DNA of 32,000 nt, from NCBI RefSeq assembly GCF_000015585.1, contig NC_008789.1, positions 690,001-722,000 of the forward strand, in the 5' to 3' direction. The stretch's first letter is position 1. Each line of letters opens with the position of its first letter. Of this stretch, positions 1,398 to 26,481 are shown piece after piece. The DNA comes from Halorhodospira halophila SL1 (GTDB lineage Bacteria; Pseudomonadota; Gammaproteobacteria; Nitrococcales; Halorhodospiraceae). The translations under genes and the position numbers were made by a program. The notes beneath the pieces were generated by a model. That model had not been told where the DNA came from and searched no databases. It worked only from the letters and a program-made list of their open reading frames with translations.

Positions 1398-1596
1398 TAT
1401 GGAATAGTCCTCAAGTGGGGGGCATGTTCCACGGGAAGTGGGGTGCCGATTCCACGCGAAGCGGGTGTGCTGTTCCACCGGATGTGGGGGGCCGATTCCA
1501 CGGGATGTGGTGGGGCCGTTCCACGGCAATGGGGTGGATAGGCGCGGCGATCGGGGATACTTGGACTCTCCCCACCACCTGCTCCGGAGAGAGTCC

Positions 1597-3139: not shown

Positions 3140-3167
3140 TCGCCCCCACCACGGAGAGATCCTGATC

Positions 3168-3932: not shown

Positions 3933-4083
3933 GCCGGTGGCCTGATGTGGACCTACTGCCCGGGAAGGCACCCCAATTCAGTGGAATGGCCCCACCACTT
4001 CCCGTGGAACGGGCCCCCCACATGCGGTGGAACGGGCACCCCTCATCACGTGGAACAGGCCACCCACTTGACTGGAATCCCCA

Positions 4084-4888: not shown

Positions 4889-4944
4889 GGATCACCTCGT
4901 CGAATGGTAGCTATTGAGGTGTCCACGGTTGGTGGGCAAGACCA

Positions 4945-5609
4945 CTCTCGGCCATCGAGTTGTCGTAACAGTCGCCCACCGAACTCATCGAAGGGCGCAC
5001 CCCGGCCTCCCGGCAGCGGTTGCCGAAGGCAATGGATGTGTACTGCGACCCACGGTCCGAGTGGTGTATGACGGCCTCTGGACGGCGCTGCCAGATCGCC
5101 ATCTCGAGGGCGTCGAGGACGATCTCCGTGCGCATGTGGCCAGCCATTGACCAGCCCACGACACGCCGTGAGAACACGTCGATGACGACAGCGAGGTACA
5201 GGAATCCCGCCCACGTTGGAACGTACGTGATATCCGCGACATAGAGCTGGTCTGGCCCATTTGCGGTGAAGTCCCGCTCGACGAGATCCGGCTTGTCTTC
5301 GCTGTCCCGGTCCGGAATCGTCGCAATCGTTCCCTTGCGGCGGCTGACGCCTTGCAGGCCAGCGGCCCGCATCAGGCGGGCGACTCGCTTTGCGGAGAAG
5401 CGCCAGCCTTCATCCCGGAGCTCGGCATGAATCCGCGGTGCACCGTATGTGCCGCGAGAATTGTCGTGGATCGCCTCGATCCGCTCCGTCAGAGCGGCGT
5501 CTGTCGCCGCACGGACTGAGCGGCCGCGATTGCGCCACGCGTAGAAACCGCTGGGGGAGACGCCCAGTACCCCGCAAAGCGTGGCAGTGCTGTAATAGGC
5601 CCGATTCAC
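4945..5609 (-). pseudogene. IS3-family OrfB, truncated after CYDNSMAES
   Basis: DDE motifs HSDRGSQYTS and CYDN are present. The ORF then reads through into the neighbouring IS inverted repeat (GLAHQPWTPQ). Confidence 0.8.
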
Positions 5610-5926: not shown

Positions 5927-5983
5927 CGTGGAAACCTCCTTTTACCAAAGCATCAAGGTCTCCACGGAAGCGGATCAACTCCA

Positions 5984-6726
5984 CAATCCCTTTTCCAACA
6001 GGGCTAGGTTCGGACGTACCAGTGGCTCAGTGCTCGAACGCTGCTCGGTGTCTTAATCCCTTTTCCAACAGGGCTAGGTTCGGACCCGGCATGAACGGCA
6101 AGGGAACCCAAAGTACCGCCGTCTTAATCCCTTTTCCAACAGGGCTAGGTTCGGACCCATGCTTGTCAGTCAACCCAGCCTTACCGAAGCCGTCTTAATC
6201 CCTTTTCCAACAGGGCTAGGTTCGGACGTACCAGTGGCTCAGTGCTCGAACGCTGCTCGGTGTCTTAATCCCTTTTCCAACAGGGCTAGGTTCGGACCCG
6301 GCATGAACGGCAAGGGAACCCAAAGTACCGCCGTCTTAATCCCTTTTCCAACAGGGCTAGGTTCGGACCCATGCTTGTCAGTCAACCCAGCCTTACCGAA
6401 GCCGTCTTAATCCCTTTTCCAACAGGGCTAGGTTCGGACTCGTGGACCTCGGGCGGCCGAGCGATCCCACTTTGTCTTAATCCCTTTTCCAACAGGGCTA
6501 GGTTCGGACTTGGTGGGAGCATGGAGGTCGGTGTCGATGGCCACTTCGTCTTAATCCCTTTTCCAACAGGGCTAGGTTCGGACCAAAACACGGTGAGCAT
6601 GTTGGTCATCCGTCAGGTGTCTTAATCCCTTTTCCAACAGGGCTAGGTTCGGACAGAGTTTGTTCGCCTACCCTACGACCCGGAGACCTAGTCTTAATCC
6701 CTTTTCCAACAGGGCTAGGTTCGGAC
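5984..6726 (-). CRISPR. CRISPR array 1: 11 repeats (trailer-most truncated by IS), 10 spacers of 34-38 nt
   Basis: 36-nt repeat, plus-strand gtcttaatcccttttccaacagggctaggttcggac. The transcribed sense is inferred as GTCCGAACCTAGCCCTGTTGGAAAAGGGATTAAGAC, giving the 8-nt tag ATTAAGAC. Repeats start at 5984 (partial), 6050, 6121, 6192, 6262, 6333, 6404, 6474, 6548, 6619 and 6691. Confidence 0.97.
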
Positions 6727-6949
6727 TCCTCGGCCCCATAAAGCCTTTCTGATCATGGGGTTACGAAGGGGGTTACCGCAAATCGCGGGACCCGCGGAGT
6801 TATGAGCACCTCTCATCCGCACCTTATTCCTATTTGACAAAGAGCCCGCTCCATTGGCGCAACATCTGATCATATAACAGCAGCTAAAGCATACGCCAGG
6901 GGCGGCAAGCTTGCTGTGCCCGGCTTCCAGCATCGGGGTCTGGGCAAAG
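6727..6949 (-). promoter_or_regulatory. CRISPR leader of array 1
   Basis: Lower-GC region abutting the last repeat. It shares conserved blocks with 25238-25400 and, in reverse complement, with 21440-21565. Confidence 0.65.
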
Positions 6950-7186
6950 TCAGCGATGGTGTTCGCCTTCCTCAAAGCAGGCGAAATACGCCTCGATTAA
7001 GCGGATTGGGGGCAACCTCAGCGCCTTGGCTAATTCCGCGATCGTATAGACCGTAGGATTCGCTCGGCAGCGGCAGAGGTCATAGAGCCACTGGCGACTA
7101 ACTCCAGCCCGGCGAGCGACCTCGGACAGGGAGCGCCCCTGGGCGCGGGCCTGCTTGCGGATCAGCAGCTCAAACTCCGTGCACAT
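6950..7186 (-). CDS. Small XRE/Cro-type HTH protein between cas1 and the leader
   Basis: 78 aa. HTH reads RSLSEVARRAGVSRQWLYDL. Its start is 1 nt after the cas1 stop. A paralog lies at 25471-25707. Confidence 0.8.
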   Translation of the reverse strand: MCTEFELLIRKQARAQGRSLSEVARRAGVSRQWLYDLCRCRANPTVYTIAELAKALRLPPIRLIEAYFACFEEGEHHR

Positions 7187-7187
7187 G

Positions 7188-8150
7188 CTACGCCTCGGGA
7201 ATAGTTTGGGCGCCGTGGTGGGCGCACTCGGCGGCTAGGGCCTGAGCGGCGCGGCGCTGCCAGCGTCGATGGAGCCCGGCATGGCGTTCCCAGCAGCCGA
7301 AGAAGGTCTGCCGTGCAGCCTTGCCTAGTCGTACGCCCTCGGTGCTGTTGGTGAAGTCCGTGCGCTGGAGCGTCTCGCTCGCGAATAGCTCCCAGGTCAG
7401 CCGCTCCACCCGGGCCCGGGCGATCTCCGTGAGATCGCAGGCCAAGGAGTCTCGCCCCCAGGCAGGCTCGTGCAGTACGCCGATGGCCGGATCGAGGCCG
7501 GCAGCGGTGACGGCCCGCAGTGCATCGCCGTGCGCGAGGGTGTAGCCGAGCGAGAGGACGGCGTTGACGGGATCCCGGGGTGGCCGGCGATTTCGCCCGG
7601 AGAAGCCTAGCGCTTCGGCGAAGAGAGCGCCGTAGCCGCGGAAGAAGGCCGCCGCGGCCGTACCCTCCTGCCCCCGCAGTTGCTCACCGGCGGGCGCCTC
7701 GCGGCGCACGGTCGCCTGGGCCGCCTCGATCTCGCGGTGGGCAGCCGTGAGCGGCTGGCGTTGATCAGGACGCCGGTATAGCGCACTCGCGAGGAGCCGC
7801 TGCTGCCCGGCCAGACGCAGTCGCACGAGGCGGCGCGCCCAGGCCTGGCGCTCAGCCTCGAGGTGGATGAGCCTGTACTGGCCGAGGCGGCGGACGGCAT
7901 CGCCATGGCCCTCGCTGCGGAGGAAGGCGCTGCGCCGCTGTCCACGGCTCGGCATGAAGACCAGGCTGACGCCGCTCTCGGCGAGAGTAGTGAGCACGCC
8001 GCTGCTCAGCTCGACCTGGCCAATGACGATCAGTCGGTCGATGAGGCTCAGCGGCACCGAGCGGGGCTGGGCCTCCGGTTCCCGAATGGTGAGCGCCTTG
8101 TGCGCGAGCTCCAGGCGCGTCCGGCGCCGGTCGATGTAGAGGGTGCCCAC
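7188..8150 (-). CDS. cas1: CRISPR integrase Cas1
   Basis: Starts (GTG)GTLYIDRR. Contains RNRRPPRDPVNAVLSLGYTL and GVLHEPAWGRDSLACDLTE, which are typical Cas1 motifs. Confidence 0.92.
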   Translation of the reverse strand: MGTLYIDRRRTRLELAHKALTIREPEAQPRSVPLSLIDRLIVIGQVELSSGVLTTLAESGVSLVFMPSRGQRRSAFLRSEGHGDAVRRLGQYRLIHLEAERQAWARRLVRLRLAGQQRLLASALYRRPDQRQPLTAAHREIEAAQATVRREAPAGEQLRGQEGTAAAAFFRGYGALFAEALGFSGRNRRPPRDPVNAVLSLGYTLAHGDALRAVTAAGLDPAIGVLHEPAWGRDSLACDLTEIARARVERLTWELFASETLQRTDFTNSTEGVRLGKAARQTFFGCWERHAGLHRRWQRRAAQALAAECAHHGAQTIPEA

Positions 8151-8260
8151 TTCCTTACTCCCTTTTGGCTGGAGGCTTGGACATCAGATTGGCACAGGGG
8201 CGCCAGCGTGGCGGGCACGGCAATCTTGCGGCGCGTGGCCGGGCGCCGGCTGCCACGGCG

Positions 8261-8575
8261 CTAGTCGGCCTCCGGGAATTGCGGTCTCAGGCTTAACCCC
8301 GGCAACACCAGGCCTGGCGGCAGGGGCGCCGGACCCTGGTAGGTGCCCTCCCCTTGAGGCTGCAAGGCGTAGATCCGCACGTCGTCGACGCGCTCGTCGA
8401 TCTCGCGGCGCAGAGCCTCGGCGAGCTGATGCCGGGCGCTCGGGACGAGGCGGCAGTAGAAAACGCTGTACTGCAGCGGCACGCCCCATTCCTTCATCAG
8501 CCGATGGACACGGCGCAGGCGGGCCGGCTTGCGGATGTCATAACAGACCAGGTGATCGATGGCGCGCTCACCCAT
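8261..8575 (-). CDS. cas2: Cas2
   Basis: Reads MGERAIDHLVCYDIRKPARLRRVHRLMKEWGVPLQYSVFYCRL. The ATG at 8575 overlaps the upstream ORF's stop by 8 nt. Confidence 0.85.
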   Translation of the reverse strand: MGERAIDHLVCYDIRKPARLRRVHRLMKEWGVPLQYSVFYCRLVPSARHQLAEALRREIDERVDDVRIYALQPQGEGTYQGPAPLPPGLVLPGLSLRPQFPEAD

Positions 8576-9365
8576 GGGCGGGCTCCTCCCGGCGCATGCG
8601 CTGCCAGCTGACGTAGTATTCCTCCGTGAGCGCCTGCAGGTGCCGATGAAGCTGGCTGGGCACGGGGCGCGCGAGCTGGAGCTCAAGGAACTCGACACGC
8701 CGGCGCTCAGTAAGCTCTGGGGGCTGATGGCGTCGCCACCGGACGAAGCGCAAGAGCAGGGGGATATAGAGGCAACGGCGCAGCTCGCCTTCTAGGTCTT
8801 CACCTTGGGCGGCGAGCGCGCGGCAGGCAGGTCGCCAGCCGCTGCGGTGCAGCTCCGCCTGTAGCCAGCTTTGCAACCCCCCGCCGAGCGCCGCGATCTC
8901 GTGCGGGATCCAGCGCAGCGGGCTGAGCTTGCGCAGGTAGTCCTCAAGCCGTCGGCAGGCGCTCTGGAAATCGCCGCGGGGACCGCGCCGGAAGACAAGG
9001 CTCCAGGCGTGGCGGCGCTGGGCGTCTCGCCACCAGTGGTAGGGGACGAGCCCGGTCTGTGTCTCAATCAGCGAGGTCAGCTCCTGGACGGGCCGATTCT
9101 GCGGCTCCTGGGCCGGCTGCAGGCAGGCCGTGGGCTGGCCGTGGCCGTCCTGAAAGTGGACGACAGCACCCGCCTCGACCAGGGCGAGGCAAGCCTGGAG
9201 GAGCCCCTCGCCGGCGCTGCCGCGCACGACGGCACGGCTAACCCGGGCGAGCGGGACGTACTCCGCGGCCTTGCCGGGGCGGCACAGGCGCAGCGCCGAG
9301 CCCTCGTACCGGACCTGGATCCGCTCGGCGTTGAGGTAGAGGGTACGCGGCTCGAGGCGGGGCAT
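8568..9365 (-). CDS. Short divergent Cas1-like protein (265 aa), catalytic motifs not evident
   Basis: The N-terminus parallels the Cas1 beta-domain: TLYLNAERIQV...VPLARVSRAVVRGSAGEGLLQACLALVEAGAVVHF vs Cas1 TLYIDRR...VPLSLIDRLIVIGQVELSSGVLTTLAESGVSLVF. The C-terminal half is helical but lacks the RNR..P.D..N..LS.GY and G..H motifs. An agggagg RBS is present. Confidence 0.55.
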   Translation of the reverse strand: MPRLEPRTLYLNAERIQVRYEGSALRLCRPGKAAEYVPLARVSRAVVRGSAGEGLLQACLALVEAGAVVHFQDGHGQPTACLQPAQEPQNRPVQELTSLIETQTGLVPYHWWRDAQRRHAWSLVFRRGPRGDFQSACRRLEDYLRKLSPLRWIPHEIAALGGGLQSWLQAELHRSGWRPACRALAAQGEDLEGELRRCLYIPLLLRFVRWRRHQPPELTERRRVEFLELQLARPVPSQLHRHLQALTEEYYVSWQRMRREEPAHG

Positions 9366-9378
9366 GATCGGGCCTCCC

Positions 9379-9660
9379 TTAGCCGAAGTAGAAGAAGTCT
9401 GGATCGGCGGGCACCTCGGCAGCGCCGAGGGTGACCAGGGGGCGGCGCGGCTCCAGCGGCAGGAGCGCGAACTGGTCCTCAGTGGGGTCGATGACCTGCG
9501 CCATTTCCGTGTGCAGCGCCTTGTGCTCGGCGGGGGTCAGCCAGCACTCATAGGCCGACTTCTGGCCGCCGCTGGCGTATCCCTTGATGACCCTTACGGC
9601 GCGGGATAGCCGGCGTGGGCAGCGAACATCGTAGGCGGCGAGGTAGAGTTTGCGGCGCAT
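9379..9660 (-). CDS. cas2: Second Cas2
   Basis: Reads MRRKLYLAAYDVRCPRRLSRAVRVIKGYASGGQKSAYECWLTPAEHKAL, the Cas2 ferredoxin-fold pattern. Confidence 0.8.
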   Translation of the reverse strand: MRRKLYLAAYDVRCPRRLSRAVRVIKGYASGGQKSAYECWLTPAEHKALHTEMAQVIDPTEDQFALLPLEPRRPLVTLGAAEVPADPDFFYFG

Positions 9661-9884
9661 CGGACCGCCCTCCGCGTGATTGCTGGTGCCTAGGCTGGCA
9701 TCCAGCGTCGCGCAGGGCGGGAGATGGGAAGCTTGCCGCCGGGATGGCTCTCTCGAACGTCGCCAGGACCCCCCAAGGCAGCCGCCTGGCGACCACTACT
9801 CCGCGGAGGGTGGCAGAAATTGGTTGAAGACACTGCTCAGCGGCTCATGGAGCACTTAAGGGCTCTGCTCAGCGCCAAGCGCAA

Positions 9885-11042
9885 TCAGCAGGGCTCCACG
9901 TGCGCCTTCCACTCCCGGACGATATCCCGCAGCCGGGGCAGCTCATCCGGGCCAATGAGTCGGATCCGATGCTGCCGGGCGCGCTCTCGCATAATATCCG
10001 TCGGCTGCCGGGCGCTGACCATCCAACTGGTACCGAAGAAGCCGCGCAGGTTATCGCCGATGCTGTCCAGCTTGTAGAGTTGCTGGTCATCGGCGGCTTC
10101 GTTGCCGTGGCGCAGGGTCTTGCACTCCACCACCAACAGACGATTGACATGGATGGCAACCACATCTAGTTCGTTGCGGGCCTTGTCGGTACCTTCCCAG
10201 GTGCCTTCCACCCCCATGGCCACATCGTCGAGCCCCTCATCCCGGAGCCGGTGGTAGACATACTCCTCCAGCCAGCCGCCGTTGAGAAAGCGAGTCCGCT
10301 CCTCGTCGAGGAAGGTCACCTCGGCACCACCCTCCCAGTCCAGCAAGCCCTGGTCGCGGAGCCAGCCCAGATTATTGGCCCAGCGGCCGTACGGTGGGTC
10401 ATCGAAGGCCTGGTCACGCGCGACCAGCCGCCCCTCCCTGTCCAGAGACCGGGAAGCGACCGCATTCAGCGCACCCAGGAAATCGCCATGGTCCCTGGCG
10501 ACCTCCGCTAGCCTCTTGGCCACCTGCTTGCGCTCGCCAGCCTCACGCTGCCAGTCCTCGTCCGCGGAGGCAGCACGGTGGTAGCGAAACCCCTGGGCGC
10601 GCAGGCTGATTGGCACGTCAAGCACCGAGGTCTGTGGCGTCGGCGCCTCGGCCCGTTCATTCCCCTCCGGCAAGTGCTCCAACCGGCCATGGGCGGTATC
10701 GGTGTAGATCCGGCGGTGTACACTATCCCGCAGCATCTCGAGAAACCCCAGAGCCATGAGCTTGTTGCCGCCCGTCAGATTGAGGACCACCTCGTCCGCC
10801 GCCGGCAACTCTTCCAAGATCCCCAGGGCGAATTCGTGCAACTGGGGCAGGTCGGCATCCGGGGCATTCTCGAAGGTCTGAACCGCAATACCGGCCTCTT
10901 CTTCCAGCTTGCGGAGCAACTGAGCCTGCCCGGCCATGGCCGGCGTAACAATGAGAGCCGCATGCTCCGGGCGCTCCATGAGCGCGGGTATCAGATTGCC
11001 GGCAAGCTGGGCAGACACCAGCTGGATGTGGAGTCGGGTCAT
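9885..11042 (-). CDS. can2: CARF + PD-(D/E)xK nuclease effector (Can2/Card1 type)
   Basis: N-terminal CARF with NLTGGNKLMA. C-terminal ELDVVAIHVNRLLVVECKT gives the D...ExK motif. An aaggag RBS lies before ATG 11042. Confidence 0.8.
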   Translation of the reverse strand: MTRLHIQLVSAQLAGNLIPALMERPEHAALIVTPAMAGQAQLLRKLEEEAGIAVQTFENAPDADLPQLHEFALGILEELPAADEVVLNLTGGNKLMALGFLEMLRDSVHRRIYTDTAHGRLEHLPEGNERAEAPTPQTSVLDVPISLRAQGFRYHRAASADEDWQREAGERKQVAKRLAEVARDHGDFLGALNAVASRSLDREGRLVARDQAFDDPPYGRWANNLGWLRDQGLLDWEGGAEVTFLDEERTRFLNGGWLEEYVYHRLRDEGLDDVAMGVEGTWEGTDKARNELDVVAIHVNRLLVVECKTLRHGNEAADDQQLYKLDSIGDNLRGFFGTSWMVSARQPTDIMRERARQHRIRLIGPDELPRLRDIVREWKAHVEPC

Positions 11043-11071
11043 GGGATTGGTCTCCTTCGAGTGATAGGGCA

Positions 11072-11383
11072 TCAGTTGCCCGGTTCCACTTCGCCCAGGC
11101 TCTCTACACGGTAGGCCTCGAGACGGGCGCCAGCGGCCTCCATGTCGTCGGCGGTTAGTTCTTGGCCGCGCAACTGCGGTGGGAGATCCAGCGACAGATG
11201 GAGATACCGCCCACCACGCTCGCATACAGCGGCCGCAAGATGCACGGGGAGCGTTCCGATCACCCTATCCCCAACCTCCAGCTCGGCCGGATTTAGATGA
11301 TCCACCTGCCGATCAACCGCCAGGCCCCGGCGCTGGGCCCATTCCACAGCCCCCGAGTGACGGGTCACGAACCAAGTCGTCAT
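11072..11383 (-). CDS. csx16: Csx16 (VVA1548-family CRISPR-associated protein), copy a
   Basis: 103 aa. Reads MTTWFVTRHSGAVEWAQRRG...GDRVIGTLPVHLAA...YLHLSLDLPPQLRGQELTADDM. About 55-60 percent identical to the copy at 23008-23310. Confidence 0.7.
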   Translation of the reverse strand: MTTWFVTRHSGAVEWAQRRGLAVDRQVDHLNPAELEVGDRVIGTLPVHLAAAVCERGGRYLHLSLDLPPQLRGQELTADDMEAAGARLEAYRVESLGEVEPGN

Positions 11384-11615
11384 GGTGGTGCTGTCTCCTT
11401 TTCCTTACCTTCCTTTGGGTCAGCCGGCCTCTTTACCTCGTTGGCAGCCGCCTCAGGGTGCCCGTCACGGTAGACCCTTTTCGGCGCCAGAGAGCGGCTT
11501 GCAAGCTTACGACCACCAGCTCCTCTGGCCCTGCAAACTTGCGGTTTGTAAGGTCAACCATGACACTAAGCTAGCCTTGCGGAGGATCGCTCGAAACGCA
11601 CACGGAGTGCTGCTC

Positions 11616-12749
11616 ATGACCGCCGACACCGACGCGCCTCATACCCTCCTCTGCGTCACCGGGCTGACGCCACAGGTGGTCACCGAGACGCTCTACGCCC
11701 TCGCGCAGGAGGGGGCACACGCCCTTCCGGATCGCATCGAGGTCATCACCACGACCGAGGGCCGGCGCCGCCTGGCGTTGACCCTGCTCGCCGAGCACGG
11801 CGGCCACGGCTACCTGGACCGACTTTGCGCCGACTACGGTATCGACCGCGGCGCCCTCGCCTTCGACGTGGACAGTATCCACGTTGTCGGCGGCGCCGAC
11901 GACGAGCCCCTCGCCGATATCGTCACTGAGGCGGACAACGCCGCGGCCGCCGACCGGATCCACGAGCGCATCCGCACCCTGACCGAGCAGCCCGGGCGGC
12001 TGCACGTCTCCCTCGCCGGGGGACGCAAGACCATGGGCTTCTACGCCGGTTACTCGCTCTCGCTCTACGGCCGGGGGCACGACCGGCTCAGCCACGTGCT
12101 GGTCAATCCGCCCTTCGAGTCGCACCCGGACTTCTTCTACCCACCACCGACGCCGGCAACCCTCCAGCTACCCGGGCGCAACGACATCATCAGCACCGCC
12201 GAGGCCGAGGTGCGTCTCGCCGAACTGCCTTTCGTCCGGCTGCGCGAGGAGCTCGGCGAGGAGCTGCCGCATCAGGGGCTATCCTTCAGCGAGGCGGTCG
12301 AGCGCGCCCAGCAGGTACTGATCCCGCCCCAATTGACCATCGATCTTACTGAGCGCACCGTCACGCTCCAGGGGCAGCCGATCACCCTCTCGGCAACCCA
12401 CTTCCTCTGGCTGACCTGGCTGGCCGACCGCGCTCGGCAAGAGGCCCCAGCGATCGCCTTCGACGAGGCCGCGGTTGATGAACTGACGGGCTACGCCGAC
12501 TGGCTTGAAGGTCGCCTCTCACAGCTGCATGAGAGCCTGGCCTCGGCGCGCAAGGAGATCGAGCGAGAAGGCCGCTCGAACTACTTCGAGCGCACCCGCT
12601 CGCGACTCAACAAGGCCATCGCCGAGCGCAGCGGCCTGCCCACCCGGGCGGCAGCGCGCTACCAGATCCACACCCACAGCAGCCGGCCCCAGACCACCTA
12701 CGGCCTGAAGCTCGAGCCGGAGCAGATTCGTATCGAGGGGGAGCCGTGA
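11616..12749 (+). CDS. CARF-domain protein, Cas_NE0113-like, with uncharacterised C-terminal domain
   Basis: Reads LLCVTGLTPQVVTETLYAL...HVSLAGGRKTMGFYAGY...HVLVNPPFE. The C-terminal 150 aa or so are helical with no recognisable nuclease motif. A ggag RBS lies before ATG 11616. Confidence 0.7.
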   Translation: MTADTDAPHTLLCVTGLTPQVVTETLYALAQEGAHALPDRIEVITTTEGRRRLALTLLAEHGGHGYLDRLCADYGIDRGALAFDVDSIHVVGGADDEPLADIVTEADNAAAADRIHERIRTLTEQPGRLHVSLAGGRKTMGFYAGYSLSLYGRGHDRLSHVLVNPPFESHPDFFYPPPTPATLQLPGRNDIISTAEAEVRLAELPFVRLREELGEELPHQGLSFSEAVERAQQVLIPPQLTIDLTERTVTLQGQPITLSATHFLWLTWLADRARQEAPAIAFDEAAVDELTGYADWLEGRLSQLHESLASARKEIEREGRSNYFERTRSRLNKAIAERSGLPTRAAARYQIHTHSSRPQTTYGLKLEPEQIRIEGEP

Positions 12750-12826
12750 GCCGGCAAGCTTGCAGGCATGCTGACCACGTTGATCGCCGGGCGATACTGC
12801 GGCCACGCAAGAGAGCGAAGAGCACC

Positions 12827-13816
12827 ATGGAGCAACGACACCTGACCCTGGAGCTGCTGACCCCGACCTTTCTCGGGGATGCTCAGCAGACCGCCGCCTG
12901 GCGGACGCCGCCAATCAAGGCGCAGCTGCGCCGCTGGTGGCGGGTCGCCGCGTTCGCGCAGGGGATGCGCCTACCCGAGCTACGCGCCCTGGAAGGACGG
13001 CTTTTCGGCGACGCCGCCGGGCAGCAGGGCCGCAAGAGCCAGGTTCGGCTGCGCCTACAGCCGCATAAGGGACGGCCGGGCACGCAGCACAACAACGCGT
13101 GGCGCCAGCAAGCCAATCAACAGCCGTTACGGATGAATAACGGCTTGCCGGCCGATGGCTACCTCGGTTTCGGCCGGGTCAAGACCAAAGGTGCTAACGA
13201 GACCGCCCTGCCACCCGAGGAGAAGGCCGAGCTGCGCCTGGCCTGGCCGGCGGAAGCCGAGGGCGCCGAGGCCCTCGACGAGGCCCTCGGGCTCTTCCAT
13301 CGGCTCGGCAGCCTCGGAGGACGCAGCCGCAACGGCTGGGGCGCCTGCCACCTGCACGGCGCCGAGGCCATTGGCCTGGACGCCTACAGCCGTCCCTGGG
13401 AAGAGGCCTTGGAAGAGGCCTGGATCCACGCCCTCGGCAGGGATGGAAACGGCCTGCTGCTGTGGTGGACCCCGCCGTGCAAGAGCTGGGAGGCCGCCAT
13501 GCGACGGCTCGGCGACCTGCGCAAGGGCCTGTGCGGCGAGGCGGGGGCGCTGCGGCCGCTGCTCTCCTGGCCGGTCACAGGCCAGCAGCAGCAGGGTCTC
13601 GACAACCAGAACCGGATCCCCAACACCCTGCAGCTTAAGGTTGTCCGGGACGAGCAGGGGCAGCTGCGGGGACAACTCGCGCACCTCCCCTGCCGACCCG
13701 AGCCGAAGATCTGGGATGCGCTACCCAAGGAGGTGCGCGACGACCATCCTGCGCTCTGGCGCAACGCCCACGCCTTCCTCGACCGGCACAGCGATCTCGA
13801 GCGGGTGCACGCATGA
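12827..13816 (+). CDS. cmr1: Cmr1 (RAMP)
   Basis: Reads LTLELLTPTFLGDA...PPIKAQLRRWWR. G-rich loop is GSLGGRSRNGWG. First gene of a cmr operon with overlapping stops and starts. Confidence 0.85.
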   Translation: MEQRHLTLELLTPTFLGDAQQTAAWRTPPIKAQLRRWWRVAAFAQGMRLPELRALEGRLFGDAAGQQGRKSQVRLRLQPHKGRPGTQHNNAWRQQANQQPLRMNNGLPADGYLGFGRVKTKGANETALPPEEKAELRLAWPAEAEGAEALDEALGLFHRLGSLGGRSRNGWGACHLHGAEAIGLDAYSRPWEEALEEAWIHALGRDGNGLLLWWTPPCKSWEAAMRRLGDLRKGLCGEAGALRPLLSWPVTGQQQQGLDNQNRIPNTLQLKVVRDEQGQLRGQLAHLPCRPEPKIWDALPKEVRDDHPALWRNAHAFLDRHSDLERVHA

Positions 13817-16746
13817 CGGAGGCAACCCTCATGGACATTGATCTGGCCCGGAACAAGCTGCTCGCCCGACTGCACGACCCGGCGGAGAAGGCGCTGGTCC
13901 TGCTGCGCGATCCCGCCGGCCACGAGGGGGGCACCGTGCGCACCCTCATCGAGGAGATCCTCGGCGAGGTGCCGCAGGCGGCCTGGGCGCCCGTGCGCAA
14001 GGCCGACCGCTGGGCCTCGGCGGCGGACCGGCCGCAATTCCCCCGTGAGCGCGACGGCGATCGCTTCGCGCGCTGGAGCCAGGTGCGCTTCGCCGAGCAG
14101 CCGGTGCTGCGCCATCCGCTCACCGGCGAGAAGATCGATCTCGGCGAGCACGGCAAGCTGCGGGAGATCGAGCTCGACACGCTCAAGGCCGGCAGCCTCG
14201 AGCATTTCCGGCACCTGATCCATCGTGACGAGGCGGGGAGCGTCGATTCCTGGCGGACCCTGCTCGCGCTGTGGCGCTTCGGCCCCGAGCCGGCAACGAG
14301 CGGCGATGCGACCGGGCTCGGCGAGCTGTGGCGCTATCTGCCGGCGGATACCCGCATCCCGGACCACACCATCTGGCAGCACCTGGACCTGAGCTCCGCG
14401 CTCACCGGCGCCTTCGCGGGCGATGGCCAGGGCCGCTGCGCCCTGCTCAACGTCACCCTCGGCCCGGTGCAGGAGCTGATCGCCGCCGCCCGGACGACCT
14501 CGGACCTATGGGCCGGCTCGCACCTGCTCGCCCGGCTCGCCTGGGAGGCGATGCGCGTCGTCTGCGAGCGCCTCGGCCCCGACGCCGTGCTCTTCCCGCA
14601 GCTGCGCGGCGTCCCGCAGGTCGACCTCTGGCTCCTCGAGCAGGGGCTGGCGCCGGAGCTCTTCGCGAAGGAGCCCTGGAACGAGCGCACCGTCACCGAC
14701 GCCAACCCGCTGTTCAGCGCCGCCCTGCCCAACCGCTTCCTCGCCGTGGTCCCGGCGGATCAGGCGGAGGCGATCGGCCGCGCCATCGAGGCGCACCTGC
14801 ACGAGTGGGTCGCCGAGACCGCCGAGGGCGTGGTCAGCGATCTGCTCAGGGCCGTCAACCTGCACACCGATCCGACAACACCCGCCTATCAGCAGGCACG
14901 GGAGCAGCTGGCCGGATTCCCTGAGGTCTACTGGTCGGCCGTGGGCTGGGACGAGATCGCCACGGACGCCAACGGCGAGCCCGAGGCGGACCGCCTCGCC
15001 GAGGCCCTGCGCCCCTTCTATGAGCCGCAGGCCGAGGCCCCCGGCTTCCTCAGCTCCGAGGCCTGGCGCGTACTACAGCGGCCCATCGAGGTCATCGATC
15101 CGGAAGCGGGGACGCCGGCGACCTTCTACCGGCCCAATCCCGGCGTGCTCTACCCCGCGCTCTACGAGCTCAGCGAGCGAGTGATGGGCGGCGTCAAGGC
15201 GACCCGCCCCTTCGCCGCGCAGCACGAGGGCGGCTATCGCTGCTCGCTGACCGGCGAGGTGGAGTGGCTGACCCACGATCGCAGCCACCTCGACCTGCCG
15301 CCGGGCCAGCGGGAAGGGCACGACACCCTCTGGAGCCTCGTTGCCAAGCGCCACCCGAGCTGGGCGCGCAAGGGTGAGCACCTCGGGGCGCTGGCCGCCC
15401 TCAAGCGGCTCTGGCCGCAGCGCTTCTGCCGCGAACTCGCCGGGACCCTCGGGCAGGAGCAGACGCCGCGCTTCGTCGTCTCCACGCACACCATGGCGCT
15501 GGCCACCTCCCTGGCCCGCGCTGCCGAGGAGCCGAATCCCGCCGGCGGGCTCAGCGCCGAGCAGGCCGAGGCGATCCGCAACGCCGATCGGGTTGCGCTA
15601 CCGCGGCGGCTGGCGCAGCGGCTACACCACCTCGAGCACGGTGAGCTCCTCGCCCGGTTGCCCGGCTGGGTCGAGCAGCAGCGCGAATCCGACGACGGCG
15701 ATGAGACCGCCGCCCGGCAGGCGATCCGCAAGGTCACCGGCACCGAGGCCGAGGCCTACTACGCCCTGCTGCTCATGGACGGCGACCGCATGGGGGCCTG
15801 GCTCTCCGGCGGCGACGGGACGACCATCCCCTACCGGGCGGCCTTCCACCCCGACCTGGCGGACGCAGTGGACACACGCTTCGGCGACCATACGGTCCTG
15901 CAGGCGTACCTCGACACGCCGCGGGCGGTCTCACCGGCCCGGCACCTGGCCATCTCCGGGGCGCTGAACGACTTCTCCACCACCCTCGCCCGCAGGGTGG
16001 TCGAGGAGTGTCACCACGGCCGCGTCCTCTATGCCGGCGGCGACGACCTCATGGCCATGCTGCCCACTGGCGATCTGCTCAGCGCCATGCGCGAGCTGCG
16101 CGACGCTTACTCGGGCACGGCTACCAGCGGTGAGGCCGAGGAAGAGGACGCCTGGTGCCGCAACGGCTTCATCTATCGGCAGGACCGGCTGTACCTGACC
16201 ATGGGGTCGCAGGCCACCGCCTCGATGGGGGCGGTGATCGCCCACCATAAGACCCCTCTGACCGCGGCCCTCGCTGAACTGCGCCAGGCCGAGCAGCGGG
16301 CCAAGAACGAGGGCGGGCGCGACGCCTTCGCCCTGTCCGTTCTCAAGCGCAGCGGCGGCGCCCTGCGCCACGTCGGCCGCTGGGCACCAGCAGCGGGTAT
16401 CGACGAGATGAGCGCCCTGCGCGACTTCGCCGAGGCGCTCCATGCCAACCCCGAGGCCTCCCGGCGCGCCGCCTACAACGTCGCGGGCTGGCTCGCCGAT
16501 CTCCCCGAGCCCGACACCCTCCCCCCGGAGGACGGCGTCGCCGGCTACCTCGAGGCGGTGCTGCACTACCAATTCTGCCGCCAGGGCCTCGAGCAGCAGG
16601 GGCAGCCCATCCACGCGCGGCGGCTCGGATCGCTCGCCAGCGTCTCGCCAACCGGCGACGAGCTGAGCAGCGCCGCCAAGATCCGCGACCGTCTCAGCCA
16701 CCTCGTCGGCGTGGCCGAGTTCCTCGCCCGCGAGACCCGGAGGTAG
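13813..16746 (+). CDS. cas10: Cas10/Cmr2 large subunit
   Basis: 977 aa. N-terminal LHDPAEKAL. Contains YYALLLMDGDRMGAWL and the cyclase motif LYAGGDDLMAML. ATGA overlap with cmr1. Confidence 0.92.
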   Translation: MTEATLMDIDLARNKLLARLHDPAEKALVLLRDPAGHEGGTVRTLIEEILGEVPQAAWAPVRKADRWASAADRPQFPRERDGDRFARWSQVRFAEQPVLRHPLTGEKIDLGEHGKLREIELDTLKAGSLEHFRHLIHRDEAGSVDSWRTLLALWRFGPEPATSGDATGLGELWRYLPADTRIPDHTIWQHLDLSSALTGAFAGDGQGRCALLNVTLGPVQELIAAARTTSDLWAGSHLLARLAWEAMRVVCERLGPDAVLFPQLRGVPQVDLWLLEQGLAPELFAKEPWNERTVTDANPLFSAALPNRFLAVVPADQAEAIGRAIEAHLHEWVAETAEGVVSDLLRAVNLHTDPTTPAYQQAREQLAGFPEVYWSAVGWDEIATDANGEPEADRLAEALRPFYEPQAEAPGFLSSEAWRVLQRPIEVIDPEAGTPATFYRPNPGVLYPALYELSERVMGGVKATRPFAAQHEGGYRCSLTGEVEWLTHDRSHLDLPPGQREGHDTLWSLVAKRHPSWARKGEHLGALAALKRLWPQRFCRELAGTLGQEQTPRFVVSTHTMALATSLARAAEEPNPAGGLSAEQAEAIRNADRVALPRRLAQRLHHLEHGELLARLPGWVEQQRESDDGDETAARQAIRKVTGTEAEAYYALLLMDGDRMGAWLSGGDGTTIPYRAAFHPDLADAVDTRFGDHTVLQAYLDTPRAVSPARHLAISGALNDFSTTLARRVVEECHHGRVLYAGGDDLMAMLPTGDLLSAMRELRDAYSGTATSGEAEEEDAWCRNGFIYRQDRLYLTMGSQATASMGAVIAHHKTPLTAALAELRQAEQRAKNEGGRDAFALSVLKRSGGALRHVGRWAPAAGIDEMSALRDFAEALHANPEASRRAAYNVAGWLADLPEPDTLPPEDGVAGYLEAVLHYQFCRQGLEQQGQPIHARRLGSLASVSPTGDELSSAAKIRDRLSHLVGVAEFLARETRR

Positions 16747-16749
16747 CCC

Positions 16750-17901
16750 ATGGCCGAGTACCGCTACATCGAGCCCCAGGACGTCCTCTTCTTCCGCGGC
16801 AACCGCCTCTTTGGCGAGCCCGGCAACGCCGGCGCCGCCCTCATGCCGCCCTGGCCCTCGGTCTTCGCCGGGGCCCTGCGCAGCGCCATGCTCAGCGCCG
16901 CCGGCGCGGACCCGGCGCAGCTGCGCAGCGGCGAGCTGCCTGCCCCGCTCGACACGGTGCTCGGCACCCCCGAGGAGCCGGGGACCTTCACCCTCACCGG
17001 CGTGACGCTGGCTCGCCGGCAGTCGTCCGGCACCGCCGAGCCCCTCCACCCCCTGCCGGCGGACCTGAGCGTCGAGCGTGATGAGGCCACAGGCGAGTGC
17101 GCGGTCCATCGCCTGACGCCGCAGCCACTGCCCGCCGGCGTCGCCAGCAGCCAACCCCTGGAGCGCCTGCCGGTGCTCCGGCGCAGCGACCGCGGTAAGC
17201 CGGCCGCCGGCTACTGGCTCACCCATAGCGGCTGGCAGCGCTACTGCCAGGGCGAGCCCCCACCGGCTGAGGCCCTCGTTCACCGCTCGGCGATCTGGAG
17301 CAGCGACCCGCGCCTGGGCATTGCCCTGAAGCCCGAGCAGCGCACGGCGGCCGAGAGCCAGCTCTACACCACCGAGGGCATCCGGCTGTGCGAGGGATAC
17401 GGCTTTCTCGCCGCCATCGCCGGCTCCGACCCGACCAGCCTGCCTAAGCAGGCAACCCTGCGCCTCGGCGGCGACGGCCGCGGCGCGTTCATGAGCGCCG
17501 TCGCAGCCCCGGTCGAAACCTCGCCGGAGCCGGCCGCCATCGAGGCAGAGGGCCGCCTACGGATCGTACTCACCACGCCCGGCATCTTCCCGGGGGGGTG
17601 GCAACTCCCCGGGCTCGACGCCAATGGCCTCTGGCACTATCCCGGCGGCCGGGCGCGGCTGGTCGCCGCTGCTGTGCCCCGCGGCCAGGTCATCAGCGGC
17701 TGGGATCTGGCTCACCACCGGCCCAAACCCGCCCAACGTGCGGCCCCAGCCGGGACCGTCTACTGGCTCGAGGCGCTTGAGGGCGGGCTCAAGCCGCTTC
17801 GCAAGCTTGCCGAATCCGGTCTCTGGGGCATGACCCCGGAGAATGAAGACCCAGCACGGCGAGCCGAGGGCTTCAACCGCTTCGCCATCGCCAACGCCTG
17901 A
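16750..17901 (+). CDS. cmr3: Cmr3
   Basis: Reads YRYIEPQDVLFFRGNRLFG...PPWPSVFAGALRSA. Its position after cas10 also fits. Confidence 0.85.
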   Translation: MAEYRYIEPQDVLFFRGNRLFGEPGNAGAALMPPWPSVFAGALRSAMLSAAGADPAQLRSGELPAPLDTVLGTPEEPGTFTLTGVTLARRQSSGTAEPLHPLPADLSVERDEATGECAVHRLTPQPLPAGVASSQPLERLPVLRRSDRGKPAAGYWLTHSGWQRYCQGEPPPAEALVHRSAIWSSDPRLGIALKPEQRTAAESQLYTTEGIRLCEGYGFLAAIAGSDPTSLPKQATLRLGGDGRGAFMSAVAAPVETSPEPAAIEAEGRLRIVLTTPGIFPGGWQLPGLDANGLWHYPGGRARLVAAAVPRGQVISGWDLAHHRPKPAQRAAPAGTVYWLEALEGGLKPLRKLAESGLWGMTPENEDPARRAEGFNRFAIANA

Positions 17902-17915
17902 AGGGATCGCAGACC

Positions 17916-18830
17916 ATGTTCGAGAAGAACGCCGCCCTATTCCTCTACAGCGTCAGCCCCGTCCACATGGGGGCTGGCACCGCGACCGGGGTGATCGACA
18001 ACCCCATCCAGCGCGAGGTGCACACGCAACACCCGAGCTTCGCCGGCTCCGGGCTCAAGGGCGCCATCCGCCACGGCTTCAAGGCCCTTGGCGGCAACCC
18101 CGACCAGGCCGATCAGCTCTTCGGCCCCCGCCAGGGCGATCTCCACGCCGGCGCCGTGAGCCTCGGGGACGCACAGCTCGTCGCCCTGCCGGTGCGCACC
18201 CGCCGGGAAGGCTACGCCTACGCCACCTCGCCATTGGCCCTCGCCCGGCTGCAGCGGCTGCTCCACCAGGCCGGCCTCCAGCCCGAGTGGACAGTGCCCA
18301 CGCTGCCCCAGGGCGAGGCGGCTCGCGCGCCGGCGGCCGTCACGCCCGAGGGGCTCGAGGCCCTCACCGCCGACGGCGGCCGGCTCCACTTGGAGGTCTT
18401 CGAGCTCGCCGCACAGGCCGAACCCGGCGTAGCCGCCATCGGGCAGTGGCTCGCCGAGCACGCCCTCAGCAAGGACCACGGCGAGTACTTCCGGAACAAG
18501 CTCGCGCGGGACCTAGTGATCCTCCCGGAGACCGAGCTCAACTACTTCAGCCGCAACGCCATGGTGGTCGAGCCCCACGTGCGCATCGATCCGAAAACCG
18601 GCACCGCCGATGGCAGTGGGCTGTTTTATACCGAGAACCTGCCGCCGGAGAGCCTGCTCGCCGCGCCGGTGATGGCCAGCGGCGACCGCAGCGGTGAGCG
18701 GGAGCTCGACAGTGCCGCTGTCATGGCGCAGCTCCATACCGCCCTCGACGGCAACACGCTGCAGATCGGCGGCGACGCCACCACCGGCCGGGGGCTGGTC
18801 ACGGCCCGACTCGTGGAGAAGGTATCATGA
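17916..18830 (+). CDS. cmr4: Cmr4 (backbone RAMP, target RNase subunit)
   Basis: Reads PVHMGAGTATGVIDNPIQREVHTQHPSFAGSGLKGAIRH. C-terminal G-rich loop is IGGDATTGRGLV. Confidence 0.9.
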   Translation: MFEKNAALFLYSVSPVHMGAGTATGVIDNPIQREVHTQHPSFAGSGLKGAIRHGFKALGGNPDQADQLFGPRQGDLHAGAVSLGDAQLVALPVRTRREGYAYATSPLALARLQRLLHQAGLQPEWTVPTLPQGEAARAPAAVTPEGLEALTADGGRLHLEVFELAAQAEPGVAAIGQWLAEHALSKDHGEYFRNKLARDLVILPETELNYFSRNAMVVEPHVRIDPKTGTADGSGLFYTENLPPESLLAAPVMASGDRSGERELDSAAVMAQLHTALDGNTLQIGGDATTGRGLVTARLVEKVS

Positions 18831-19216
18831 CAACGCCCATGACCCTCGAGCAGCAGCGCGCCGCCGATGCCTGGCAGGCTGCGGCGGCCTGCACGGACCC
18901 CTACGCCAAGCTCGCCAAGGGGGCGCCGGCGCTAATTATGAACAGCGGTCTGATGCAGACCCTGGCTTTCCTTGAAGACAAGGGCGAGGACCACCACCGA
19001 GCCCTCGCTCGACAGCTGCGGCGGTGGATTGTGCGGCAGCACCCGGAGCTGCTAAGCACCCGCGGCGATAGCGCGGACCCGGGCTATGAGGCAATCATGG
19101 AGGCGCTGCTCCACGCCGAGCCGCGCACCTTCCAGGCCGTGACCGCGGAGGCCCTCGCCTGGCTGCGCTGGGTCCGCCAGATCGCGCCCACTCGCGTCGA
19201 GGAGCGTTCGTCATGA
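18827..19216 (+). CDS. cmr5: Cmr5 (small subunit)
   Basis: 129 aa and helical. Reads APALIMNSGLMQTLAFLEDKG. Overlaps both neighbouring genes. Confidence 0.8.
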   Translation: MTTPMTLEQQRAADAWQAAAACTDPYAKLAKGAPALIMNSGLMQTLAFLEDKGEDHHRALARQLRRWIVRQHPELLSTRGDSADPGYEAIMEALLHAEPRTFQAVTAEALAWLRWVRQIAPTRVEERSS

Positions 19217-20424
19217 GCCGCGCCGCCGTTCCCGCCTACCTCGGTGAGGACTTCCGGGAGGCCGCTCCGGGCCACCGCTTTGCGCTCTATCTCAGCGTCT
19301 GGGATCAGCAATGGAAGAAGCAGCGGGGCGGTGCGATCGAGGAGCTGCTGAAGCTGAACGACGACGATCGGAAGCGGCTGGGCGCTTTGATCGAGCGCCA
19401 ACGCCGGCTACTCCAGCATGAGGAGAGCGCACAACCAGGGAGCACCCTGAACCTGCCGGCCACGAGCACGAGCCCCTTCACAACAGGGCTCGGCATGGCC
19501 CACCCGCTGGAGAACGGCTTCGCTTTTCTCACCCCCTACGGCCTGCCTTACCTCGCGGGAAGCGGCGTCAAGGGTGTCCTGCGCCAGGCGGCGCGGGAGC
19601 TCGCCGAGGGGGGTGAGTTCGAGGATCCCGGGCGCGATTGGGACTGGCCCGAGATCGAGGCACTTTTCGGGAGCCCCGGCGAGGACGAAGGCGGCGTGAC
19701 AGGCCGGCGCCGAGGCGCCCTAAACTTCTGGGACGTCTTCCCCGAACCAGGGCGAGGGCAAGACCTGGCCTGGGAGGTCATGACACCCCATCAGGGCAGC
19801 TACTACCAGGACGCTACCGGCCAAACCGCACCGCACGATAACGGCGCGCCCGTGCCGATCTACTTCCTCGGTATCCCGGCCGGCAGCGGTTTCCGCTTTC
19901 ATATCCAGTGCAATCGGGCCCTGTTACGGCAGACGGGACCGACACTGCTTGAGCCAGCGGGCGAGGACGGCGATCGAGCACGCTGGCAGGTTCTGCTCGA
20001 AACCCTCTTCGCGCACGCCTTCGAGTGGCTCGGCTTCGGCGCCAAGACGGCGGTCGGCTACGGCGCGCTGTCCATCGACGAGAAGACCCGGCGGCACGAG
20101 GCCGAGGCGCGCGAAAAGATCCGGGCCGAACAGGCACGCAAGGAACAGCTTGCGAGCTTGCCGCCCGGGCAGCGTCGCGCGGAAGAGCTGCTTGAGCAGC
20201 GCCAAGACCCCAGCTATCCGGCGCACCGCTTCTTGCTCGAACAGCTCGAAGCCGGTGCAGTAGCCGCCGAGGAGCAAGCGGCCCTGGCGCAGGTTGCGCT
20301 CGACTACCTCGCGCAAGACCGTGAAAAGGTTCGTAAGACGAAGAAAGCCAAGCAGAAGCTGCCGAAACTGGACGAGGAAGAGGTGCAACTTCAGCGCTTC
20401 GTCGACGAGGAAGGCACAGGGTGA
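19213..20424 (+). CDS. cmr6: Cmr6 (RAMP) with about 117-aa charged C-terminal extension
   Basis: Reads PYLAGSGVKGVLRQAAREL. G-rich loop is GFGAKTAVGYGAL. This is followed by a K/E/R/Q-rich helical tail. Confidence 0.85.
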   Translation: MSRAAVPAYLGEDFREAAPGHRFALYLSVWDQQWKKQRGGAIEELLKLNDDDRKRLGALIERQRRLLQHEESAQPGSTLNLPATSTSPFTTGLGMAHPLENGFAFLTPYGLPYLAGSGVKGVLRQAARELAEGGEFEDPGRDWDWPEIEALFGSPGEDEGGVTGRRRGALNFWDVFPEPGRGQDLAWEVMTPHQGSYYQDATGQTAPHDNGAPVPIYFLGIPAGSGFRFHIQCNRALLRQTGPTLLEPAGEDGDRARWQVLLETLFAHAFEWLGFGAKTAVGYGALSIDEKTRRHEAEAREKIRAEQARKEQLASLPPGQRRAEELLEQRQDPSYPAHRFLLEQLEAGAVAAEEQAALAQVALDYLAQDREKVRKTKKAKQKLPKLDEEEVQLQRFVDEEGTG

Positions 20425-21335
20425 TTCGACTCCATCCGCTGCAGCTGACCTTCGAGGCGCAGGATGCGCTGGTGCTGCCGGCGCAGCCGGGGACCTTGTG
20501 GCGTAGCGCCATCGGGGCGCGGCTGCGAGCCGACGCCTGCATCACCGGCGCCTCGCAGTGCCGCGGGTGCCGGGTCGCCGAGCGCTGCGCCTACGCGCAG
20601 CTCTTCGAGCCGCCGCGCCGGCATGCCGGCCTCGCCCCGCGCTTTCGCGATCCACCTCGCCCCTGGGTGATCGCCCCTGGCCCCGGCGGGCAGCGGGTGG
20701 CCCCCGGCGAGCACCTCGAGCTCGGTCTCACCCTCATGGCCGATGGCCTGGCGTACTGGCCCTCCCTCTATCGAGCCCTTCAGCGGCTGCGGCTCGGGCC
20801 TGCCCCGCTGAGGCTGGTTCGTGCCGTCAGCCACCCGCCCCAGGGCGAGCCGGCCCCGGCGCCAGCCAAGCCGCTGCCGGGCTATCGGCCCGAGCCGCCC
20901 GCGCCGCCGCCGGAGGGCTCAGTCCAGATCACCCTCGACAGCCCCCTTCGGTTGCAGCGCAACGGCCGCCCGCTCACAGCCGAGGCATTTTCCCCCGAAC
21001 CGCTGATCGCCGCGCTATTGCGCCGGATCACGAGCCTCGATGAAACGGCGCCCGAGGTCGACCATGGTGCGCTAACCCGTCATGCGCAAGAGGCCGTGGC
21101 CCTGCGTGATCCGGTGTTGCGCTGGTACGACGCCGATCGATCCTCGAGCCGCCAGGGCCGGCGCGTACCGCTCGGCGGGTTGGTCGGGCACTTCCGTCTT
21201 GAAGGCGCGCTCGCCCCCATCTGGCCGTGGCTTTGGACAGGGCAGTGGGTTCATGCCGGGAAAAGCGCCGTCATGGGCCTTGGGCGGTTTCGCTTGGTCG
21301 AAAGTGAGGAGCGAGGCGGTGTACTTGGGATCTAG
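20421..21335 (+). CDS. cas6: Cas6-type crRNA endoribonuclease (DUF2276/COG5551-like)
   Basis: GTG start overlapping the cmr6 stop. N-terminal Cys cluster is CITGASQCRGCRVAERC. C-terminal G-rich loop is HAGKSAVMGLGRF. Confidence 0.7.
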   Translation: MIRLHPLQLTFEAQDALVLPAQPGTLWRSAIGARLRADACITGASQCRGCRVAERCAYAQLFEPPRRHAGLAPRFRDPPRPWVIAPGPGGQRVAPGEHLELGLTLMADGLAYWPSLYRALQRLRLGPAPLRLVRAVSHPPQGEPAPAPAKPLPGYRPEPPAPPPEGSVQITLDSPLRLQRNGRPLTAEAFSPEPLIAALLRRITSLDETAPEVDHGALTRHAQEAVALRDPVLRWYDADRSSSRQGRRVPLGGLVGHFRLEGALAPIWPWLWTGQWVHAGKSAVMGLGRFRLVESEERGGVLGI

Positions 21336-26392: not shown

Positions 26393-26481
26393 CGGCACGG
26401 TCTCCACCAACCGGATGGGTCACGGCGCCTTTGCCGATCACGCCGGCTCCAGAAACCCTATGGGGGCCATGAGGGCCCGCG

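Follow-up and report, generated by a model that had tools for sequence, protein, structure and literature searches.

The 32,000-nucleotide (nt) stretch of DNA analysed here (the window; positions 690,001 to 722,000 of contig NC_008789.1) belongs to Halorhodospira halophila SL1 and carries a type III-B CRISPR-Cas locus. Among its adaptation genes is a 265-amino-acid open reading frame (ORF), annotated as a hypothetical protein. We find that its product, called Cas1' hereafter, is a full-length Cas1 homologue which, judging by its predicted fold, keeps both the N-terminal beta domain and the C-terminal alpha-helical domain. Its canonical metal-dependent active site has probably been lost. The gene stands in a four-gene module with a canonical cas1 and two different cas2 genes, referred to as cas2(93) and cas2(104) by the length of their products in amino acids. 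The four module products are identical to the deposited proteins ABM61404-ABM61407.

Residues 9-90 of the 265-amino-acid protein matched positions 1-81 of the PF01867 profile (E = 1.4e-3, 18.2 bits, under the 22.3-bit cut-off), in keeping with the N-terminal likeness to the Cas1 beta domain noticed in a preliminary description of this DNA. No match to TIGR00287 was found. A BLASTP comparison with the neighbouring Cas1 gave 29% identity over 72 N-terminal residues, and most relatives of Cas1' also matched PF01867 (13 of 14 close ones, 50 of 60 in the wider set). The relation was upheld when the profile of the Cas1' family was aligned with that of the partner Cas1 family using hhalign, the two corresponding end to end over 241-251 columns (probability 98.5-98.7%, E = 2e-15 to 3.5e-15). 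Moreover, the subtype profiles best matched by Cas1' (I-G, I-C, generic and I-D) coincide with those best matched by the partner Cas1. An AlphaFold2 model built with 14 homologues (predicted local distance difference test (pLDDT) 87.7, predicted template modelling score 0.86) was compared with the PDB by Foldseek. An unrelated fold was one possible outcome; instead the best 50 matches were all Cas1 or casposase, over both domains (E down to 1.6e-8, template modelling scores mostly about 0.5-0.63, 258-346 aligned columns, 11-15% identity). The whole protein, beyond its N-terminal domain, is therefore predicted to have the Cas1 fold. Thus the C-terminal half does lack the Cas1 motifs, as had been described, but it is not unrelated to Cas1, its predicted alpha-helical fold being retained. 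Searches of PDB sequences with Cas1' and with its family profile found no Cas1; only the fold comparison did. A Foldseek search of viral structures returned nothing below E = 0.05, and so gave no sign of a phage-borne mimic, and a tblastn search of plasmids gave no match.

The canonical Cas1 of the window (model pLDDT 93.1) has E162, H227, D239 and E242 intact. Across 45 partner-type Cas1 sequences E162, H227, E242 and R245 are invariant and D239 is nearly so (at least 90%). The residues of the R186-A197 loop (R-N-R-R-P-P-x-D-P-x-N-A), which lies ahead of the helix leading to the His loop, are invariant or nearly invariant in the same 45, and also invariant in 8 partner sequences. In the profile alignment, the catalytic H227 falls on A185 of Cas1', a column holding His in 3 of 60 family members and in 4 of about 160 in a wider set. 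E242, the second acid of the DLxE motif and the metal ligand of solved Cas1 structures, falls on R197 (an acid in 13 of 60), and D239, the first acid of the motif, on E194 (a column with Asp in 44 of 60). In the Cas1 model E162 is part of helix 155-174, and the corresponding helix of Cas1' starts only at residue 133, so that E162 aligns with a truncated segment where, in the close subfamily alone, D132 may be its counterpart. A comparison of secondary structure between the two models revealed no counterpart in Cas1' of Cas1 helix 128-151, the Arg/Pro loop 175-193 or the hairpin 266-275, the RNRRPP.DP.NA loop being replaced by one of five residues (148-152). The Cas1' family has a signature of its own (P38, R41, R44, W112, E228), and no alternative set of polar residues conserved across the whole family was found. 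Because the His and the metal-binding Glu are replaced, the catalytic segment is truncated and the Arg/Pro loop is absent, we conclude from alignment and models that the canonical active site of Cas1' is in all probability gone. The three motifs reported as missing in the preliminary description (RNRRPP.DP.NA, G..H and the acid of DL.E) are indeed missing by profile alignment, and no intact triad was found.

All four genes were found in 13 distinct loci, and four shorter contigs are consistent with this as far as they are sequenced. The order is cas2(93)-cas1-cas1'-cas2(104) in 10 of the 13. In the three Halorhodospira loci (the window, L006 and L020) it is cas2(93)-cas1'-cas2(104)-cas1, and the window order is thus a Halorhodospira-specific rearrangement of the usual one. 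In both orders, and in every locus, cas1' is adjacent to the cas2(104)-type gene, and cas2(93) orthologues start the module in all complete loci. Gene boundaries within the module overlap by 4-11 nt or lie a few nt apart in most loci; the gap between cas2(104) and cas1 in the window is 110 nt. No cas1'-cas2(104) pair was found without cas1-cas2(93) among the loci with enough flanking sequence. Conversely, three Cas1 proteins picked only by their 48-57% identity to the window Cas1 were each followed by a 263-282-amino-acid Cas1' and a second Cas2, which indicates that this Cas1 clade and Cas1' travel together. Most loci have effector genes of the Cmr type; the exceptions are two with the Csm type (L017 and L018, both fetched via Cas1 relatives), where the module stands with Csm-type (Csm1_B, Csm2) effectors, csx16 and a Cas_NE0113-family gene. 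The proposed co-occurrence with type III-B systems therefore holds for the window and, in the form of Cmr effectors, for most loci, but the module is not exclusive to III-B.

The window's two Cas2 proteins share 30% identity. The Cas2(93) type is marked by two conserved features, the motif GGQKS(A/V)(Y/F)EC(W/F)L and, as its C-terminal tail, PADP(D/E)(F/Y)(F/Y)Y(F/V)G, which in the window take the form GGQKS.YECWL and PADP-FFYFG. In their place the Cas2(104) type has QYSVF and a P.G(L/V) tail. The C-terminal tails of Cas2 contact Cas1 in known complexes, and by analogy the two tails may specify different partners.

The four genes are inherited together and all are constrained, the Cas1'/Cas2(104) pair evolving faster. 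Ratios of non-synonymous to synonymous substitution (dN/dS), calculated by the Nei-Gojobori method between the window and its 83%-identical relative L020, were 0.108 for cas1', 0.113 for cas2(93), 0.103 for cas2(104) and 0.153 for the N-terminal part of cas1. The value for the gene upstream of cas2(93) was disregarded, the sequences there being non-orthologous or misaligned (28% identity). Over 11 loci the mean pairwise identity was 48.4% for Cas1 and 49.9% for Cas2(93), compared with 34.5% for Cas1' and 39.4% for Cas2(104). The pairwise divergences of the four proteins are correlated (Spearman 0.74 for Cas1 against Cas1').

A word-indexed search yielded only 15 relatives of Cas1'. An exhaustive profile search of 1.84 billion representatives returned 366 clusters (50% identity) at E<1e-3, of which 74 reached E<1e-10 and 27 E<1e-30, so that within this library of representative proteins the family is widespread. 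With few exceptions the 150 family representatives listed are 245-285 amino acids long. All 150 score at least 100 bits on the family hidden Markov model (HMM) and at most 47 bits on that of the partner Cas1, a separation that is partly circular for the 60 sequences used in building the HMM and not for the other 90. A closer inspection of existing profiles showed that the family is already noticed and profiled, the Halorhodospira proteins being a divergent, rearranged branch of it. One model of PADLOC-DB v2, PDLC01185, bears the description 'Cas1, diverged variant, second in the loci'. It recognises 45 of 60 family members (best E = 6.5e-81), and Plasticicumulans P0169, which is only distantly related, over its full length (3.6e-17). 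For the window Cas1' it is the best PADLOC match, but a weak one restricted to the N-terminal part (E = 4.4e-4, 18 bits, residues 12-113), and the tie is transitive, by way of proteins retrieved with the family profile. The PDLC01185 profile has 246 positions, near the length of the family, compared with 265 residues in the window protein. Its name fits the usual position of cas1', second after the canonical cas1, and differs from the Halorhodospira arrangement, where cas1' comes before cas1; its description says nothing on inactivation, a paired second Cas2 or function. NCBI annotates family members as 'hypothetical protein' or 'CRISPR-associated endonuclease Cas1', the latter of which appears misleading. 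Full-text literature searches, whose coverage did not extend to the 2015 and 2020 CRISPR classification reviews, found no paper on a second, inactive Cas1 with a second Cas2, and no functional description of the family. The literature searchable here describes neither the inactivation nor the obligatory second Cas2, nor the tight arrangement of the four genes.

A Cas1' that is apparently degenerate, yet constrained and always accompanied by a second Cas2 beside an intact Cas1-Cas2 pair, fits a pseudoenzyme subunit or a specialised integrase. With a confidence somewhat above even, we take Cas1' to be a non-catalytic structural subunit of a heteromeric spacer integrase. It would be stoichiometric in the complex and fill the non-catalytic positions, canonical Cas1 supplying the active sites, and this division of labour would have been fixed genetically when, after a duplication, one copy lost the active site it did not use. 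Cas2(93) and Cas2(104) would bridge the complex as a heterodimer, giving an integrase with two non-equivalent ends or faces. Two arrangements can be envisaged: a (Cas1-Cas1')2 complex bridged by Cas2(93)-Cas2(104), which the need for two transesterifications would favour, and a one-armed complex in which Cas1(2)-Cas2(93) would be joined to Cas2(104)-Cas1'(2), a pairing favoured by gene adjacency and matched rates. Cas1' is most strongly conserved in the N-terminal domain, which it has in common with Cas1, and in known structures this domain of Cas1 forms the Cas1 dimer and the contacts with Cas2. A more far-reaching version is an obligately heteromeric, intrinsically asymmetric integrase in which Cas1 would carry out catalysis, Cas1' would occupy the non-catalytic positions or a whole lobe, and the Cas2 heterodimer would break the two-fold symmetry. 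We offer this only tentatively, as something possible rather than probable, and know of no characterised integrase with such obligate heteromeric asymmetry. If true, the asymmetry would amount to protein-encoded control of prespacer loading, insertion or orientation in type III systems, which use no protospacer-adjacent motif (PAM).

Several observations weigh against a purely structural Cas1' within a single complex. The residue mapping of Cas1' is based on profile alignment and secondary-structure correspondence, rather than on residue-level superposition. D132 is invariant in the close (Halorhodospira) subfamily and is placed on the position of the catalytic Glu, E162, by contiguous extension of the alignment from a conserved Tyr (Y173 of Cas1 to Y143 of Cas1'); the same column holds Asp or Glu in only 23 of 60 wider members. 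E194, too, keeps the first acid of the DLxE motif in the Halorhodospira subfamily. A non-canonical residual activity that might draw on D132 and E194 is thus conceivable. Moreover, the faster-evolving proteins, Cas1' and Cas2(104), are encoded by adjacent genes, as are the slower ones, Cas1 and Cas2(93), so that a separate Cas1'-Cas2(104) sub-complex would fit as well as a single heteromer.

Such a sub-complex, standing as a separate non-integrating complex beside a Cas1-Cas2(93) integrase, might handle prespacers by capturing, measuring or protecting them, or might recognise the leader and repeat, like Cas4, Csn2 and IHF elsewhere. The similar, faster rates of its two members speak for it, as do the adjacency and coupling of their genes in both gene orders and their displacement as a block in Halorhodospira. 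However, among loci with enough flank none was found to have the pair in the absence of cas1-cas2(93), conservation in Cas1' is strongest in the very domain it has in common with Cas1, and its DNA binding is putative; we consider this reading rather unlikely. We find it improbable that Cas1' is a built-in brake, a dominant-negative Cas1 mimic which would titrate Cas1, Cas2 or prespacers and so limit self-acquisition. A Cas1 fold without the active site, encoded by a gene that by its arrangement would be co-transcribed with the integrase genes, would suit that role, but module loci have large arrays of up to 133 repeats and a brake has no obvious need for a dedicated, co-evolving Cas2.

An ordinary active second cas1-cas2 pair, making an integrase that is redundant or an alternative and has its active site shifted, would draw on D132 with its placement under contiguous extension and on the further residues E156, E194, H119 and H242, all invariant, like D132, in the close subfamily. 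Of these only position 194 is conserved across the wider family, the columns of the catalytic His and the metal-binding Glu are variable and the Arg/Pro loop is absent, which together make this reading very improbable. The preliminary description had also raised the idea that the extra pair serves a second repeat variant of this genome, and the window does contain a two-repeat mini-array (21566-21671) whose repeat differs in its 5' half. This did not stand up: the same four genes occur in 11 of the other loci, each with one dominant repeat type, and an inactive Cas1 would be unable to integrate alone, so that we give the idea very little credence. Least probable of all is a decaying, functionless remnant of a duplicated cas1. 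The 'hypothetical' annotation and the score under the Pfam threshold are what such a remnant might show, but the dN/dS of 0.108, the intact frame, the length conserved in 366 clusters and the confident predicted fold led us to reject the pseudogene reading.

Table 1. Window coordinates of the adaptation module, the neighbouring cas genes and the CRISPR arrays.
Feature	Coordinates	Strand	Basis and remarks
csx16	11383-11072	-	PF09652, E 4e-41; upstream of module, same direction
Card1-type CARF nuclease gene	about 11042-9885	-	PF09002, E 8.5e-63, and PF23400; upstream of module, same direction
cas2(93), 93 amino acids (cas2b of the preliminary description)	9379..9660	-	ORF listing; PF09827, E 6.4e-11; TIGR01573 above cut-off; ABM61407
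GGGAGG ribosome-binding site, in gap between cas2(93) stop and cas1' ATG	9373..9378	-	direct reading
cas1', 265-amino-acid ORF, predicted catalytically degenerate Cas1 paralogue	8568..9365	-	ABM61406 / WP_011813429, annotated 'hypothetical protein'
8-nt ATGGGTGA overlap of cas1' stop with cas2(104) start	8568..8575	-	direct reading
cas2(104), 104 amino acids from internal ATG (cas2a of the preliminary description)	8261..8575	-	PF09827, E 4.5e-15; ABM61405
canonical cas1, 320 amino acids	7188..8150	-	PF01867, E 1.1e-69; TIGR00287, 191 bits
small helix-turn-helix protein, 78 amino acids, XRE/HTH_31-type	6950..7186	-	HTH_31 / HTH_3, E 1.6e-8
main CRISPR array, 11 repeats of 36 nt (minus-strand reading GTCCGAACCTAGCCCTGTTGGAAAAGGGATTAAGAC)	5977..6726	-	downstream of adaptation operon
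type III-B effector genes cmr1, cas10/cmr2, cmr3, cmr4, cmr6, and cas6	12746..21335	+	Pfam RAMPs, Cmr2_N, Cas10 palm2, Cas_Cmr3, CRISPR_Cas6
two-repeat mini-array, variant repeat (GTCTGAGACGAGCCCTGCTTGAAAAGGGATTAAGAC)	21566-21671		just downstream of cas6, opposite strand
four-repeat array of main repeat	24988-25237		about 3.7 kb beyond the cas genes

The features of the locus are listed in Table 1. The ORF listing and direct reading of the DNA showed the coordinates, lengths and junctions of the preliminary description to be exact. The TAA of cas2(93) is followed by a 13-nt gap, GGGAGGCCCGATC, holding the ribosome-binding site, and then by the ATG of cas1' at 9365; the 8-nt overlap at the other end of cas1' suggests translational coupling with cas2(104). 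The gene of the small helix-turn-helix protein lies directly 3' of cas1, its start 1 nt from the cas1 stop, and separates the adaptation genes from the presumed leader of the main array at 6727-6949. It was not called in the non-Halorhodospira loci and its membership of the module is uncertain; the protein could be a local regulator. A scan of positions 6600-11500 for promoters and terminators found nothing above background. In most related loci csx16 precedes the module; in H. halophila the Card1 nuclease gene sits between the two. A Cas_NE0113-family gene is transcribed divergently from the module, together with the effector genes.

The main array ends in a degenerate terminal repeat at 5977. 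The arrays next to the module contain 7 to 133 repeats ending GGGATTA(A/C)GAC, and the repeat family of the window array, ending GGGATTAAGAC, also follows the module in other loci. The arrays lie downstream of cas2(104) in eight loci and upstream in three. Given flanks of sufficient length, an array is almost always present; none was found in the 17.5-kb locus L002. The arrays adjoining the module have clearly grown, and the module is compatible with active adaptation. Within the main array of the window there is a perfect 212-bp tandem duplication (5985-6196 = 6197-6408) in which three spacer-repeat units occur twice, pointing to recombination within the array rather than to acquisition. The mini-array repeat, GTCTGAGACGAGCCCTGCTTGAAAAGGGATTAAGAC, has only its 3' half in common with the main repeat, its 5' half being different. 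ORFs without family matches and a TraS-like ORF (24111-24638) separate the four-repeat array from the cas genes. Downstream of the module on a Wenzhouxiangella contig (L009, 11695-11838) there is a perfect 12-nt tandem repeat, AGCGACGTGGGC, of about nine copies, which is unrelated to the CRISPR repeat.

To the left of the main array, an IS21-family insertion sequence (IS) element occupies positions 1413-4067, with an istA-like transposase (1438-3015), an IstB ATPase (3111-3932) and inverted arrays of a 23-nt unit at its ends (1413-1534 and 3966-4067). It was apparently inserted in the gene of an IS3-like transposase, a truncated part of which remains at 3978-4577, and a further IS3-type transposase lies at 4911-5609. 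On the right, positions 25400-31300 resemble a mobile element, with an IstB-like ATPase (26482-27255), DUF2857 (28244-29083) and a ParA-type ATPase (30419-31240), and the TraS-like ORF mentioned above fits the same picture. With IS elements to its left and this mobile-element DNA to its right, the CRISPR-Cas locus may be part of a genomic island. A weak 'cas1' HMM match at 25694-26080 was taken to be spurious, coming from an alternative frame in a G+C-rich stretch where the ORF called is a DUF192 protein.

To our knowledge, the structurally characterised Cas1-Cas2 integrases are all built from one Cas1 and one Cas2 species. What the non-catalytic half of their Cas1 protomers contributes is hard to study, as no mutation can be confined to one kind of protomer. 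In this locus the roles are apparently split over two cas1 genes and the Cas2 bridge over two more, so that the division of labour would be directly testable, and the apparent inactivation, the second Cas2 and the four-gene architecture together offer a concrete case of a natural Cas1 pseudoenzyme. This may bear on spacer loading in type III systems, which have no PAM.

Compared with canonical Cas1 (PF01867 / TIGR00287; the neighbouring protein and the solved I-D, I-C and I-E proteins), Cas1' has the same predicted two-domain fold and the same N-terminal pattern, VPL..V.R.VV....L..L...G..V.F.D..G, and in the window and related loci both adjoin cas2 and a CRISPR array. Cas1' differs in being about 55 amino acids shorter, in lacking the catalytic His, the metal-binding Glu/Asp, the RNRRPP.DP.NA loop and the beta hairpin, in its truncated catalytic helix and in its identity of only 12-15% to solved Cas1 chains. 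The type III-D RT-Cas1-Cas2A-Cas2B operon of Vibrio vulnificus YJ016 likewise serves adaptation in a type III system and encodes two distinct Cas2 proteins, and csx16 genes are found in the same island (PMC6821258). There, Cas2A and Cas2B are both required for acquisition and a Cas2A/Cas2B heterodimer has been proposed; however, the two are about 70% identical, compared with 30% in H. halophila, and a single reverse transcriptase (RT)-Cas1 fusion is present with no second Cas1-like gene described (PMC6821258). The H. halophila locus, in contrast, has no reverse transcriptase, and its 320-amino-acid Cas1 contains PF01867 only. A parallel to the role proposed for Cas1' comes from solved Cas4-Cas1-Cas2 complexes, whose Cas1 subunits are divided into active and inactive ones. 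The latter have contacts of their own, touching the C-terminal helix of Cas4 in type I-C and the repeat in type I-G (10.1101/2022.05.30.494039). Of the chemically identical Cas1 subunits in such complexes only one half puts its active site to use, and it is the position of the inactive half that Cas1' would take. The inactive subunit there is the same polypeptide as the active one, whereas Cas1' would be a separate, genetically fixed pseudoenzyme.

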